From positions 1 to 28,396 of the forward strand of contig PRDJ01000069.1 of assembly GCA_003345555.1 (NCBI GenBank): a stretch of DNA of 28,396 nucleotides, read 5' to 3'. Position numbers and translations under genes: made by a program. Positions 20,787-25,731 of the stretch are shown here, in pieces (position 1 is the stretch's first letter; every line of letters begins with the position of its first letter). Under the pieces are notes generated by a model. The model was not told where the DNA came from and searched no databases. It saw only the letters and a list, made by a program, of their open reading frames with translations. The DNA comes from Candidatus Thorarchaeota archaeon. GTDB taxonomy: Archaea; Asgardarchaeota; Thorarchaeia; Thorarchaeales; Thorarchaeaceae.

Positions 20787-21470
20787 ATGAGTTCTGATGT
20801 AGACAAATCGGACAACGATGTGATTACAAGAGCGAGACGACTTCTTCTACTCGCAGATCTGATTGATAATTACCCACAGGTAGTATCGCGCAGAGTGGCA
20901 GGCTTGGTCTACATCCTGATTGGTGGCGGGATTTCATTCGCCACATTGATATTCATGTCACTTCAGGACTTGCTTGGTCCTGGAGATCCCTTTCTGACGA
21001 ACATAGGATTCGTCATACTCGGCCTTGTCGCTTCATGGATCATTGGCTTTAGACTGATTGTTCCGCTTACACGCTCATACCCAGTACAGCCTAGCGCATC
21101 CGAAGGTGGAAAAGCAGCCTCTGCACTTTGGGGAGTTCTTGGGACAGCCATTGTGTTATTATCACTCGTGATATTTCAGATGGGACTGGCGGAACTATTC
21201 CCACCGACACTCCAATTCATAATGGGCTGTGGTTTCACAATCACTTATGTCTTCGGAAAGAGAGCAAGCAGTTACAACTTCTACTCCAGAGAACACGTCT
21301 ACTTCGCAATTGCGATATTCCTCAGCATGATTCCAATGCTGATCGTTCCTGCTGCTGCATACGTGGTTCTGATTGTAGTGGACATGGGGGGAATCTATGC
21401 TATTGGCATACATATGCTGATCACTGCTGAAGGACTTCTGGTGGAGAGTGAAGGGCAGGGATACGGTTGA
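20787..21470 (+). CDS. Hypothetical membrane protein (about 6 TM)
   Basis: GAGGTGA SD; six hydrophobic segments; TTGA overlap with the downstream regulator. Confidence 0.8.
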   Translation: MSSDVDKSDNDVITRARRLLLLADLIDNYPQVVSRRVAGLVYILIGGGISFATLIFMSLQDLLGPGDPFLTNIGFVILGLVASWIIGFRLIVPLTRSYPVQPSASEGGKAASALWGVLGTAIVLLSLVIFQMGLAELFPPTLQFIMGCGFTITYVFGKRASSYNFYSREHVYFAIAIFLSMIPMLIVPAAAYVVLIVVDMGGIYAIGIHMLITAEGLLVESEGQGYG

Positions 21471-21817
21471 GTCTTGATGGGGAACTCCTGTCAACGTTGG
21501 TCGGACTCATGGAAGAAGACAGCGAAACCATGGTTCCCGCACGCCTCTCCCTTCTGGTCTATCTCTATTTCGCACGGCATGCAACGTTTCCTGTCCTTCA
21601 GAAGAAACTTGGTTTCACATCAGGCAATCTATCAAGTCACCTCAGAAAGCTGGAGGAGCTGGGTCTGATTCAAATATCAAAGAGCTTTGTGAAACTAAGA
21701 CCAACAACCTTCGCTGTCCTGACGAAGGAAGGAGCAGAACGCCTGAGAAGCCAGATGGTTCGAATGCGTGAGTTGGTATCAATGGTTGTGGACAAAGAAA
21801 CCAAATCCGAGGAGTAG
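21467..21817 (+). CDS. Winged-helix transcriptional regulator (ArsR/MarR-like, HTH_34 type)
   Basis: RLSLLVYL...FPVLQKKLGFTSGNLSSHLRKLEELGLI...KSF...PTTF..LT.EG. Confidence 0.88.
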   Translation: MSLDGELLSTLVGLMEEDSETMVPARLSLLVYLYFARHATFPVLQKKLGFTSGNLSSHLRKLEELGLIQISKSFVKLRPTTFAVLTKEGAERLRSQMVRMRELVSMVVDKETKSEE

Positions 21818-21942: not shown

Positions 21943-22131
21943 CTAGACACAACCCTGCGTCACGCTAGTTTCTGAGAAGCATCTTCCTGCCTTTCCGAAG
22001 GGCTTTCGTTCCTTCTCAGCCTTTTCTGGTTCAGCAAGTTTAGGTTTTACGAATCGGTAATAACCTCTCACAATGAAGAATAGTGCATACAGTGAAACGA
22101 AGGGGACTCTGTAGAATGCTTCATCAGCCAT
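21943..22131 (-). pseudogene. Truncated ICMT-family gene (first 48 codons only)
   Basis: MADEAFYRVPFVSLYALFFIVRGYYRFVKPKLAEPEKAEKERKPFGKA is 45/48 identical to copy 3; similarity stops abruptly at 21987. Confidence 0.9.
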
Positions 22132-22165
22132 AGTCCTAACCACCACTTACATGCTGACAAGACAT
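21987..22165. repeat. 179-bp direct repeat, copy L (ICMT 5' end plus SD region)
   Basis: Ungapped hand alignment to 25164-25342 gives 159/179 identical (about 89%). Confidence 0.9.
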
Positions 22166-22303
22166 ACTGGCGAGTCAAGATAGATACTGGCAGTCGCTTT
22201 CTGAGCTTGTCAGTCAAGCGATCAAATGCCCTCTCATGTAATAGGCTCGCGAGATGGTACGCCCACGACCGTGAGCTGGACATCCCAGCTGCCAGCCCGT
22301 TGC

Positions 22304-22903
22304 CTACTCTTCTCTGATGGCAGTGAGGGCTGCAACTATGATCCGAGTGAGAGCGCCTGCCAGCTCCTCGTCTGATACGCTTAATCCATCATGGAGCACT
22401 TGCCTGTGGGTTGTGGAGTCGACTATGTGGAAGACGATGCTCCCCCACTTCTGCAGTTTCTCACTGTTTTCGCGTCCGGTCAGCTTGCTGAGGATAGACG
22501 TTACAGAGTCCGAGCCGATAGAGAAGAGATGTTTCCCGAGCTCGGCGGTTTCAGCGTCCTCAAGGACTGCCATCTCGAAGGCGGCGATGTTTGACGAAAC
22601 CCGCCGGTGTCCCTTGATGAACCTCAACAGAGCCCTGCGAAGCAAGATGGGTGCGTTCTCGGGCGTAGCTCCCCCTAGTTCCTCTGAGAAGACCATTTCC
22701 CTCATGTCCTCAACTGCCTTCCAAGCTATGTCGGGCTTACCGCCGGGGAAGTACTTGTAGAGGAGGCCGATGCTCACTCCAGCCTCTGCCGCGATTTGAT
22801 TTGTGGTAGTGGCGGCGTATCCCTGCTTCTTGAACAGAGTGTTGGCTGTGTTGAGTATTGCGGCTATCTTTGTCGTCTTGTCTCGTCGTCTAGGCTGGGC
22901 CAT
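22304..22903 (-). CDS. TetR/AcrR family transcriptional regulator
   Basis: ILNTANTLFKKQGYAATTTNQIAAEAGVSIGLLYKYFP is the canonical TetR N-terminal HTH. Confidence 0.95.
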   Translation of the reverse strand: MAQPRRRDKTTKIAAILNTANTLFKKQGYAATTTNQIAAEAGVSIGLLYKYFPGGKPDIAWKAVEDMREMVFSEELGGATPENAPILLRRALLRFIKGHRRVSSNIAAFEMAVLEDAETAELGKHLFSIGSDSVTSILSKLTGRENSEKLQKWGSIVFHIVDSTTHRQVLHDGLSVSDEELAGALTRIIVAALTAIREE

Positions 22904-22928
22904 CAGTATACTGAAACCAGCACGCCTT

Positions 22929-22971
22929 TAAGTGAGTTTCGCTCACTAAATAAGTGAGCAAGACTCACTAA
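22929..22971. promoter_or_regulatory. Two tandem palindromic operators, AGTGAG-N5-CTCACT
   Basis: 22931-22947 AGTGAGtttcgCTCACT and 22953-22969 AGTGAGcaagaCTCACT, 22-bp period, both flanked by TA...AA, lying between divergent TetR and esterase genes. Confidence 0.85.
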
Positions 22972-23004
22972 GAGGTGTGAGAAACGACTGAATCGTCGCT
23001 TGGG

Positions 23005-24231
23005 GTGGCGAGAGCACCAAGAAGCATCGGAATATTCAAGGACGCCGAAACCGACTGGGCATTCAACCGGACATTGGCCTTCATGAGCGAGAAGGCTGCC
23101 GAGATCGGGGAGTGTCTCTATACTGCCCGCCTGATAGACGAGCGGGATGGCGACAGCTGGATTGACGAGTGGGCCAATCTTGGGCAGCGGGTGGAGGCCC
23201 TCGGCGACGAATCCCTGAGGAATGGACACACAGTGAGTGCTCGTGAAGCGTACCTTCGTGCATCGAACTACTGGAGAACCGCCGAGTATGCCTGCACTCC
23301 TAGCCACGCCCGTTTCCAGGAAACTTGGCAGAGGAGCGTTAGCGCCTTCAGGAAAGCTTGTCCTCTGTTCAGGCCAGAGATTCAGGTGTTAGAGGTGCCG
23401 TTCGAAGGAAAGATGCTGCCCGGCTACTTCATGCGGCCAGATGATTCAGTCAGAAAGAGGCCCACCATGTTTGCGGTTGGCGGAAACGATTCCTCGCTCG
23501 AAGAGATACTCATTGCGACAGGGTTCTCTGCAGTCCGCAGAGGTTACAACTTCTTCACGTTCGAATATCCTGGTCACCGTGGGGCGGTCCATCTCTACCC
23601 TGACTGTGTGAAGCGATCCGACTACTCTGCTCCCTTCAGTGCCGCTTTCGACCTACTCGGTAACCTGCCAGGGGTGGATGACCGGATGGCTCTGTCAGGG
23701 TACAGCTACGGCGGGTACGTGGTTTCACAGGTTGCCACCCGCGAATCCAGAGTAAAGGCTCTCATACCCGACAGTCCCATCATGGACGTGCCCGGTTTGC
23801 AGAGGAGCAGCCGGTTCAGTCGGGCTTTCAGACGCATGCCTCGTGGGCTTCTGGAAAGCGCAGTTGATAGGAAACTGCGCAAGACCCCCGTGTTAAGGGG
23901 GCTTGTCTATTACACCATATGGTCATGGGGCTGTCCAAACTTCGGGGAATGGGTTGACTGGAAGACGAAACTGGAGAACGTTATTACCGACGAGGTGCAC
24001 AAAATCAAGTGCCCTACCCTCGCTCTGGTTAGCGCGCACGAGGGGGCATTCATGGTGGAGCAGGCCAAGTCCTTCATGGAGAAGATTGGTTCCGCTGAGA
24101 AGATGCTCCACTTGTTCACTCAGGAACAGGACGGGTCATACGACCATTGCCAGCTCGACAACATATCGCGCGGGCAGCAGGTTGTTTATGACTGGCTGGA
24201 CGACATCTTCGACTACAAGTATGTGGGGTAG
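23005..24231 (+). CDS. Alpha/beta hydrolase, FrsA / 2,6-dihydropseudooxynicotine hydrolase-like esterase
   Basis: AREAYLRASNYWRTAE, VPFEGKMLPGY, GGNDS, FEYPG, GYSYGG nucleophile, DHCQ. Confidence 0.88.
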   Translation: MARAPRSIGIFKDAETDWAFNRTLAFMSEKAAEIGECLYTARLIDERDGDSWIDEWANLGQRVEALGDESLRNGHTVSAREAYLRASNYWRTAEYACTPSHARFQETWQRSVSAFRKACPLFRPEIQVLEVPFEGKMLPGYFMRPDDSVRKRPTMFAVGGNDSSLEEILIATGFSAVRRGYNFFTFEYPGHRGAVHLYPDCVKRSDYSAPFSAAFDLLGNLPGVDDRMALSGYSYGGYVVSQVATRESRVKALIPDSPIMDVPGLQRSSRFSRAFRRMPRGLLESAVDRKLRKTPVLRGLVYYTIWSWGCPNFGEWVDWKTKLENVITDEVHKIKCPTLALVSAHEGAFMVEQAKSFMEKIGSAEKMLHLFTQEQDGSYDHCQLDNISRGQQVVYDWLDDIFDYKYVG

Positions 24232-24310
24232 CACTTCATCCAACTCCTGCGCTTTCCGTACTCAGTGATTCTTGTTGACCCAATCCAGCCTATTCAGAGG
24301 CCAACCATCA

Positions 24311-24600
24311 AGATTCCTTCCAAGGACCAAGAGTCCTACATACAGTCCGGGTCGAAGCACACTGTATTTCTTAAGGGCAAGTGGACATCGATGATAAACT
24401 GGCTAAAGGAACGGTTCGATTAGGGGCTCTTTCCCGGCATCGTCACTGGCGTGGGGTCTAGCACTTTTCTAGGACAATGCCATTGAATATGCATCCCGCT
24501 TCGCTTGAGGCCGATCTGGGCTCTTGATGACGGAATTGAAGTCTACTCCCCCGAACAACTCGATCTATTGGCCAGTCAATGAAGCATTTTGCGCGCTATG
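24311..24600 (+). pseudogene. Decayed remnant of the lysophospholipase 3' end and the downstream membrane gene 5' end (source 12188-12393)
   Basis: 24311-24423 aligns ungapped to 12188-12300 (87/113). 24497-24600 aligns to 12289-12393 with a 1-nt deletion and an AGA>TGA nonsense change. Confidence 0.85.
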
Positions 24601-24657: not shown

Positions 24658-25308
24658 TCACTCGGAGCCAATAGAGTGCTCTTGACTTTCGTCCTTTTTG
24701 TTTCTAGATACCTTTGGGAAGAAGCGACCAGTCCGCTTCATGTACTCCCGGTATTCATCACCGAATTCCTGCAGCAGCATCTGTTCTTCTTTTCTCGCAA
24801 CGAATGGAAACAGTATGATGAGCATAATTGCGAAACAGATAATCAGGAGGTTGGCAGTGACCAGAGACATACCCAATGAGAAACCGGTCAACACGGTATA
24901 CATTGGATGGCGGACCCTTGCATATGGTCCACTCGTGATCAGTGAGTGACTCTCCTTTATCCGTAAACAGGGCGAGTATTGTTTTCCTAGTGTTCGATGA
25001 ATCCAAGCCAACAGAGGTATGTCGGCTAGTACCACTAGGACACCAACCCACCGTACGGTTTCTGGATAGCCGGGTATCTGTGTCCATGCGAACCATGGCA
25101 AGTCTAGCAGGTATAGGATTATTGAGCCAAAGGAACCAAGAATGACACAACTTATTGCTGCTTCTGCCTTTCCGAAGGGCTTTCGTTCCTTCTCAGCTTT
25201 CTCTGGTTCGGCAAGTTTCGGTTTTACGAATCGGTAATAGCCTCTCACAATGAAGAACAGTGCATACAATGAAACAAATAGGATTCTGTAGAAGGTCTCA
25301 TCAGCCAT
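24658..25308 (-). CDS. ICMT/Ste14 family membrane methyltransferase, copy 3 (full length)
   Basis: GPYARVRHPMY, EEQMLLQEFGDEYREYMKRTGRFFP; ATG 25308 (MADE) chosen by comparison with the other copies; about 78% aa identity to copy 1 by hand count. Confidence 0.88.
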   Translation of the reverse strand: MADETFYRILFVSLYALFFIVRGYYRFVKPKLAEPEKAEKERKPFGKAEAAISCVILGSFGSIILYLLDLPWFAWTQIPGYPETVRWVGVLVVLADIPLLAWIHRTLGKQYSPCLRIKESHSLITSGPYARVRHPMYTVLTGFSLGMSLVTANLLIICFAIMLIILFPFVARKEEQMLLQEFGDEYREYMKRTGRFFPKVSRNKKDESQEHSIGSE

Positions 25309-25342
25309 AGTCGCTACCACCACCTGCACGCTGACAAGACAT
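25164..25342. repeat. 179-bp direct repeat, copy R
   Basis: Partner of 21987-22165. Confidence 0.9.
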
Positions 25343-25731
25343 GCCGCGACTAAGTAATTTGTGGATGGAGCAATGTTTCCATCCTCTTCATCTCGCGCGC
25401 GAGAATCCTGTTTCACGACATCAGCTACACTCATGGATGAACCAGTGGTCCCGACATGGATTCATCGTGCTGGCCTCTGCACGATCACTGTGTTCGAAAT
25501 CAGGGAAGCCGTCGAAACTGACAGTGTTCGCCTCGTTCAGATACATCATCAGGACGTTTAGAAGGTCAAGTGAGGGAGCTGGCACCTCTACATGTAGGTC
25601 GAGGAACTCCCTATCACACTCGGGAACAACATCTCTGTGAGTGTCCAGTCTGGATCGGAACTGGAGGCAAGAATCCAAATGACAACCTTCTTTTGACTCA
25701 CCTCTGCGGTCAGGCTGGAGAACTGCACCCA

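Follow-up and report, generated by a model that had tools for sequence, protein, structure and literature searches.

The 28,396-nucleotide stretch of DNA analysed here (contig PRDJ01000069.1 of the Thorarchaeal assembly GCA_003345555.1; hereafter the window) carries a gene for a TetR-family regulator and, facing away from it, a gene for an alpha/beta serine hydrolase. Two palindromes of the form GTGAG-N5-CTCAC stand in tandem between the two genes, and comparison with related loci supports well the reading of these palindromes as the operators of the adjacent TetR. In biological terms the locus would be an ordinary TetR-type local repressor switch, which is likewise well supported by the sequence comparisons. 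The explanation that best accounts for the whole, and that we consider likely, is that TetR bound at the twin operators represses both its own gene and the hydrolase gene until it is released by a ligand.

A pair of palindromes confined to one locus

An initial annotation of this DNA had described two palindromes at a 22-bp period, and this description is correct for the window. The pattern AGTGAG-N5-CTCACT occurs there twice, against an expectation of 0.11, and none of 100 shuffled sequences reached a count of two; the two cores lie 22 bp apart, start to start. Their outer flanks are imperfectly complementary (TAAGTGAG vs. the reverse complement TTAGTGAG), and the strict inverted repeat is AGTGAG/CTCACT. 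The A/T-rich elements TTTAA (22927–22931) and TAAATAA (22947–22953) overlap the operator flanks.

We searched the genome from which the window comes (2.28 Mb, 93% complete) for further copies, and the two in the window were the only exact ones. A half-site weight-matrix scan of the same genome gave 29.3 bits to each of them and 15.0 bits to the next best site, with a maximum of 18.2 bits in a reversed-genome control, and no other site rose above that control. When one mismatch was allowed, six other sites appeared, which is not clearly above the four obtained with a control pattern read backwards. As neither the one-mismatch pattern nor the weight matrix beats its control genome-wide, a wider regulon was rejected, and the earlier suggestion that the palindromes provide a ready motif for defining a regulon leads back to this locus alone. 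By these scans, TetR and the hydrolase appear to stand alone as a module, the regulator having no further target in this genome.

Conservation of the sites among orthologous loci

Ten metagenomic orthologues of the TetR were found, at 55–83% identity. The footprint comparison was made on seven non-redundant lineages (the window together with L014, and L015, L016, L017, L018, L019 and L021; TetR identity 57–100%), contigs L020, L048 and L056 being redundant with L019, and L051 and L057 with L021. The divergent (type I) arrangement with the same hydrolase is kept in every orthologous locus long enough to show it, the window hydrolase being 77–79% identical to its partners in L017, L018, L019 and L021. 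TetR and the hydrolase are the only genes common to the lineages, and the flanking genes differ.

Palindromes lie upstream of TetR in all of these lineages, and the intergenic sites are conserved together with the regulator. The motif proposed in the initial annotation is kept upstream of the orthologous TetR/hydrolase pairs at all recovered loci, and all 26 half-sites read GTGAG, within the consensus T-W-R-GTGAG-Y. Operator 1, the site nearer the TetR gene, has 17 of its 21 columns invariant across orthologues, and its GTGAG starts 38 nt from the TetR ATG in seven of seven lineages. At operator 2, nearer the hydrolase gene, the GTGAG and CTCAC cores are invariant in all six lineages whose contigs cover the site (the contig of L016 ends inside it, after GTGAG). 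Within some 4–6 kb around each TetR gene, high-scoring sites lie solely upstream of TetR. Mean pairwise identity elsewhere in the region is 0.59 in the inter-operator spacer, 0.52 beyond a Shine-Dalgarno-like motif on the hydrolase side, and 0.43 beside the TetR ATG, where none of the 16 columns from 22904 to 22919 is invariant.

The last of these values bears on a perfect 12-bp palindrome (TCAGTATACTGA) at the TetR start codon, which the initial annotation had taken for a further site. The palindrome is present, but the window holds eight perfect 12-bp palindromes, with a genome rate of 5.9 per 28.4 kb, and we rejected it as a third operator on account of this chance frequency and its lack of conservation.

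Neither did the claim of a spacing of exactly 22 bp, placing both operators on the same DNA face, outlast the comparison. Start-to-start spacing of the operators in the orthologues is 22, 22, 23, 25, 25, 26 and 26 bp, and in a paralogous clade described below it is 24 bp, whereas cooperative same-face operators would be expected to keep a conserved distance of an integral number of helical turns. A range of 22–26 bp across lineages led us to reject same-face cooperative spacing. The gap from the CTCAC of operator 1 to the GTGAG of operator 2 likewise varies, from 7 to 11 nt in the orthologues, and is variable in sequence.

The motif follows the regulator among paralogues

Related but more distant TetR genes offer a further comparison, in which the partner gene changes. 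Thorarchaeal TetRs of about 33% identity stand beside a gene for an S-adenosylmethionine-dependent methyltransferase (L010, L049, L050, L054 and L058–L060) and have upstream of them AAAAGTGAG-N5-CTCACTTTT, which scores 24 bits; a second copy with one mismatch, at a distance of 24 bp from it, scores 18.5 bits. The TetR of L022, whose partner has a metallo-beta-lactamase fold, is preceded by one site of 17.4 bits and a one-mismatch second copy. In the Hodarchaeote locus L052 (JAEOTY010000296.1, 2830–2920), where a TetR of about 30% identity has an FrsA-like partner, two copies of TTAGTGAC-N5-GTCACTAA lie about 49 bp apart, one of them scoring 13.2 bits and the second read by eye. The L052 half-site is a one-base variant, GTGAC for GTGAG, though the VSIGLLYKYFP segment of its TetR is identical. 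The stretch IGLLYKYFPxGK, which from its position in the TetR_N match we take to be the recognition helix, is invariant across these TetRs save that the first G is replaced by A in L022. Upstream regions of still more distant TetRs were without the motif or carried other palindromes.

Because the TetR clade keeps the motif beside different partner genes, the motif would seem to belong to the regulator and not to the target gene. No argument from the sequences speaks more strongly for the adjacent TetR as the binder than this co-inheritance with changing partner genes.

Two further observations were made on these relatives. A more distant Thorarchaeal TetR, L061 (434–456; profile E 4e-26), has the palindrome AAGTAAG-N5-GTTACTT, situated some 88 nt upstream of the gene and possibly an operator that is drifting along with its regulator. 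In the methyltransferase-paired clade (L054, 2890–3001, and likewise L010, L049, L050 and L058–L060), a strong TTTTAAATA lies between the two operators, and AGGAGG and an upstream in-frame ATG follow the second operator. The layout there suggests operator, shared TATA box, operator, with a TetR start 14 codons upstream of the aligned one.

The two genes and their surroundings

The regulator (Table 1) is a genuine TetR-family member. Pfam places TetR_N on residues 16–54 of the protein with 51.8 bits against a cut-off of 24, the AlphaFold model (predicted local distance difference test score, 80.9) has nine helices in the all-alpha, two-domain TetR-type fold (about 9–10 helices, with ligand binding and dimerisation in the C-terminal domain), and Foldseek returned 110 PDB matches to that model at E ≤ 0.001, the 40 best of which are all TetR-family regulators (EthR, FasR, FadR and MtrR; TM 0.6–0.7). 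Since these are matches to TetR-family repressors in general, whose ligands are diverse, we rejected an assignment of ligand class from the fold. As a member of this family, the putative regulator would be expected to bind a palindromic operator as a homodimer and to be released by a small ligand.

The intergenic region measures 101 bp from the TetR ATG to the first GTG of the hydrolase, and 80 bp to the ancestral hydrolase start discussed below. The hydrolase itself matches PDB 3fnb (SMU_737) over residues 11–404 with E 1.3e-31, its GYSYGG falling on the nucleophile motif, and more distantly PDB 2jbw (DHPON hydrolase, E 3.3e-14). Like SMU_737, to which its homology is full-length, it has the N-terminal helical region and G-x-S-x-G. 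Pfam finds Hydrolase_4 and Peptidase_S9 in the window protein and the FrsA-like PF06500 in its orthologues, while the NCBIfam model for FrsA gives 30 bits, far under its cut-off of 477. The alpha/beta core, the G-x-S-x-G and the N-terminal helical extension of an FrsA-like hydrolase are present, in a check that covered these three features. Anaerobic archaea and bacteria commonly have relatives of it at more than 50% identity, all under generic names, and we know of no family member this close that has a known substrate. The earlier naming of the target as an esterase therefore holds as far as an alpha/beta serine hydrolase; esterase activity is a family-level guess, and the 2jbw relative is a C–C bond hydrolase.

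The host is archaeal, as the initial annotation had assumed in speaking of an archaeal promoter: an archaeal RNase P RNA is found in the same genome (144.6 bits), and those orthologue contigs that bear titles are Thorarchaeota metagenome-assembled genomes. The TetR–hydrolase pair is bracketed by a 179-nt direct repeat, which is derived from the 5′ end of a methyltransferase gene. True orthologues of the TetR were found in only three of 87 Thorarchaeia genomes, and in none of three genomes of the same genus (83–88% complete). Because of the bracketing repeat, this distribution and the differing flanks, the two-gene module looks laterally mobile, or inserted with target duplication.

Table 1. 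Sequence features of the TetR–hydrolase locus (positions are those of the window).
Feature	Position	Strand	Remarks
TetR-family regulator gene, 199 aa	22304–22903	minus	PF00440 TetR_N; ATG 22903 (CAT 22901–22903)
Perfect 12-bp palindrome TCAGTATACTGA	22903–22914		Shares first base with TetR start codon; judged a chance feature
Putative TATA-like box CTTTAAG (CTATAAG in two lineages)	22926–22932		Overlaps outer flank of operator 1; from conservation
Predicted operator 1, TAAGTGAG-TTTCG-CTCACTAA	22929–22949		Core AGTGAG-TTTCG-CTCACT 22931–22947; nearer TetR gene; 29.3 bits
Inter-operator spacer, part of TAAATAA, A/T-rich	22948–22952		Identity 0.59; 1/5 columns invariant
Predicted operator 2, TAAGTGAG-CAAGA-CTCACTAA	22951–22971		Core AGTGAG-CAAGA-CTCACT 22953–22969; nearer hydrolase gene; 29.3 bits
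Shine-Dalgarno-like GAGGTG	22972–22977	plus	Identity 0.80; 6 nt before ATG in L017, L019 and L021
ACG in place of the ATG seen in orthologues	22984–22986	plus	Preceded by in-frame TGA 22978–22980
Divergent FrsA-like/SMU_737-like alpha/beta serine hydrolase gene, 408 aa from GTG	23005–24231	plus	PDB 3fnb and Pfam matches
Left copy of 179-nt direct repeat	21987–22165		Repeat search, 89% identity
Right copy of 179-nt direct repeat	25164–25342		5′ end of ICMT/PEMT-family methyltransferase gene (24658–25434, minus)

Putative promoter elements and translation starts

Conservation around operator 1 reaches three to four bases past its half-site, whereas at the other three half-sites the corresponding outer positions are unconserved. 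The bases concerned belong to CTTTAAG, a TATA-like box of which columns 22926–22930 are invariant at four of five positions (pairwise identity 0.89). The distance from the box to the TetR ATG is constant at 28 nt, free of insertions and deletions in the seven lineages, and no Shine-Dalgarno motif lies in between; about 57 nt separate the box from the ancestral hydrolase ATG, whose Shine-Dalgarno motif sits 6 nt upstream. From its conservation and position we infer a role for CTTTAAG as a TATA box. Of the two A/T-rich elements to which the initial annotation had drawn attention, TTTAA falls within this conserved box; TAAATAA did not hold up in the same way, as the spacer that contains part of it varies in length and sequence.

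We compared these distances with crude start-codon statistics for the whole genome. A/T-rich hexamers peak at −60 to −46 in genes with a Shine-Dalgarno motif and show a smaller bump at −30 to −26 in genes without one, and GGTG is overrepresented some 11 nt ahead of start codons. These statistics suggest that the host often uses Shine-Dalgarno motifs, and the minority class at −26 to −30 is consistent with leaderless mRNAs. The 28-nt and 57-nt distances of the TATA-like box fit the host in that both match genome-wide A/T-rich peaks, and by its 28-nt geometry the tetR mRNA is probably leaderless. Operator 1 thus overlaps a putative TATA-like box at a fitting distance from both start codons. A scan of 22200–24400 for sigma-70 promoters gave no matches, and with an archaeal genome at hand we rejected a bacterial promoter of this kind. 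Our literature search found no paper that brought together leaderless transcripts, TATA boxes and transcription start sites for Asgard archaea.

The codon at the hydrolase start differs in part of the clade. Where the orthologues have ATG, the window has ACG, as do L014 and L015; L018 also has ACG at this place but an ATG two codons earlier. After the in-frame TGA, the window offers its first canonical start at GTG 23005, and no obvious Shine-Dalgarno motif goes with it. From the sequence, the N-terminus of the hydrolase would here be either seven codons shorter or started at the non-canonical ACG.

A model of repression and its alternatives

We propose that one TetR dimer would occupy each palindrome, its two helix-turn-helix motifs reading T-W-R-GTGAG-Y half-sites centred 10 bp apart. 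Repressor at operator 1 would cover the B recognition element (BRE)/TATA region of the tetR promoter and so block TBP (TATA-binding protein) and TFB (transcription factor B), limiting its own synthesis. Together the two operators span the region from the TATA-like box to the Shine-Dalgarno motif, over the expected start of the hydrolase transcript, and TetR bound there would block recruitment of RNA polymerase or initiation at the hydrolase gene. The repressor would come off the DNA when a small ligand binds in its C-terminal domain. We infer binding itself, repression as opposed to activation, the transcript starts, the sharing of a TATA box, and both the existence and the identity of a ligand.

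A more specific form of the model has the single symmetric CTTTAAG driving both genes, with a leaderless tetR mRNA made leftwards and a hydrolase mRNA that begins with a Shine-Dalgarno leader made rightwards. The two operators would then lie on the hydrolase side of the box, and the repressor would occlude BRE/TATA at its own gene while blocking the transcript start at its target. This finer arrangement is quite possible, if somewhat short of probable.

Several points weigh against the model, in its general or its specific form. The seven lineages are mutually related, so that they are not fully independent samples. CTTTAAG is only a modest match to the archaeal TATA consensus, and its 3′ part, TAAG, is at the same time the outer flank of operator 1, so the operator alone could explain part of the conservation of the box. 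Some TetR-family proteins, such as FasR, are activators. Finally, the A/T-rich stretch between the operators could itself be a TATA box, either for the hydrolase alone or for both genes.

This last point leads to the alternative that survives best, in which the palindromes are TetR operators as above but the spacer element TAAATAA is the TATA box, for the hydrolase or for both directions, with the operators flanking it. The spacer is A/T-rich in most lineages, and in the methyltransferase-paired paralogues the strong TTTTAAATA occupies just this place. In the hydrolase-paired clade, however, the spacer is variable in the manner described above, those of L017 and L018 are poorly TATA-like, and a transcript starting about 26 nt downstream of it would begin inside or after the conserved GAGGTG. 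CTTTAAG, by comparison, is the better conserved element and keeps its fixed distance to the TetR ATG. We regard a TATA box in the spacer as rather unlikely.

It is far less probable that the palindromes act as RNA or DNA hairpins, such as a stem-loop in the 5′ untranslated region of the hydrolase or a terminator-like element, and not as protein sites. Each palindrome is able to pair into a 6-bp stem closed by a 5-nt loop, a terminator scan flags 22969–22953 on the minus strand, and there are sub-threshold Rfam matches to miRNA precursors over 22921–22979 on both strands. Against this, we found no covariation: the five core pairs are invariant, outer pairs are lost with no compensating change, and the score of 0.036 was reached by 401 of 500 shuffles. 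The fold energy of the region is ordinary (z = −0.82), and the Rfam matches, at 31 bits against a gathering score of 86, are artefacts that mirror the palindromic layout. Operator 1 would moreover lie upstream of both likely transcript starts in the promoter arrangement we prefer, and 26 invariant GTGAG half-sites co-inherited with a DNA-binding protein across partner genes fit protein recognition. We therefore rejected an RNA hairpin or riboswitch-like element.

Equally improbable is that the sites are bound by another factor, with the adjacency of TetR incidental: a gene for an HTH_34 winged-helix DNA-binding protein (21467–21817) does lie 1.1 kb away, but it was rejected as the binder in that it stands outside the repeat-bracketed module and is not among the genes common to the orthologous loci, a motif found nowhere else in the genome is ill-suited to a global regulator, and the motif tracks TetR paralogues with other partner genes.

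Comparison with known systems and significance

A twin-operator TetR switch is a layout of a known kind, and this motif and TetR clade would be a further instance of it. In the Tn10 tetR/tetA pair, two divergent genes are separated by a short intergenic region with two tandem palindromic operators, each bound by one dimer, for autoregulation and repression of the target. The locus described here is like Tn10 in having a twin-operator divergent region, set here on an archaeal promoter. It differs in that Tn10, a bacterial system, pairs sigma-70 promoters with a 15-bp tetO and controls an efflux pump, whereas the present one would combine a TATA/BRE-type promoter, GTGAG half-sites with a 5-bp spacer and an alpha/beta hydrolase.

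Among characterised systems, FadR of Sulfolobus acidocaldarius (Saci_1107; PDB 6el2/6en8) comes closest. It is a TetR-family repressor with (semi-)palindromic operators that regulates itself and controls hydrolase/lipase-type genes (PMC6449355), and it demonstrates that a TetR fold of bacterial type can act on the archaeal TBP/TFB/RNA polymerase machinery. Four FadR sites govern a cluster of 23 genes, and most of these sites are over 130 bp away from promoters; the ligand is acyl-CoA. The site for autoregulation, downstream of the transcript start, leaves binding of TBP/TFB unhindered (PMC6449355). Here, by contrast, two sites are found at one divergent promoter, and one of them abuts the TATA-like box. 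The window TetR matches FadR (6el2) weakly and in the helix-turn-helix region only (E 0.0067), and bacterial FadR structures are among many equally good Foldseek matches to its model.

For divergent transcription from one box there is a precedent in Pyrococcus furiosus, where a BRE-TATA-BRE element with one symmetric TATA box gives divergent transcripts whose starts are 49–50 bp apart, the second transcript being mostly non-functional antisense RNA (PMC6640164). By the same geometry, CTTTAAG at 28 nt from the TetR ATG predicts a hydrolase start about 50 bp away, at operator 2. Unlike in Pyrococcus, both directions would here express conserved genes under one repressor.

Asgard archaea are the closest prokaryotic relatives of eukaryotes, and to our knowledge almost nothing is known experimentally of their gene regulation. 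The locus makes a sharply testable prediction: one regulator, two sites of 15–21 bp with half-sites T-W-R-GTGAG-Y, one target, and a set geometry to a TATA-like box. Without off-target sites in its genome, the locus could serve as an inducible-promoter part. If the more specific form of the model, with one TATA box for both genes, is true, this would be the first defined repressor, operator and promoter set in Asgard archaea, compact (about 80 bp) and orthogonal in its own genome, and finding the ligand could make a genetic switch of it.

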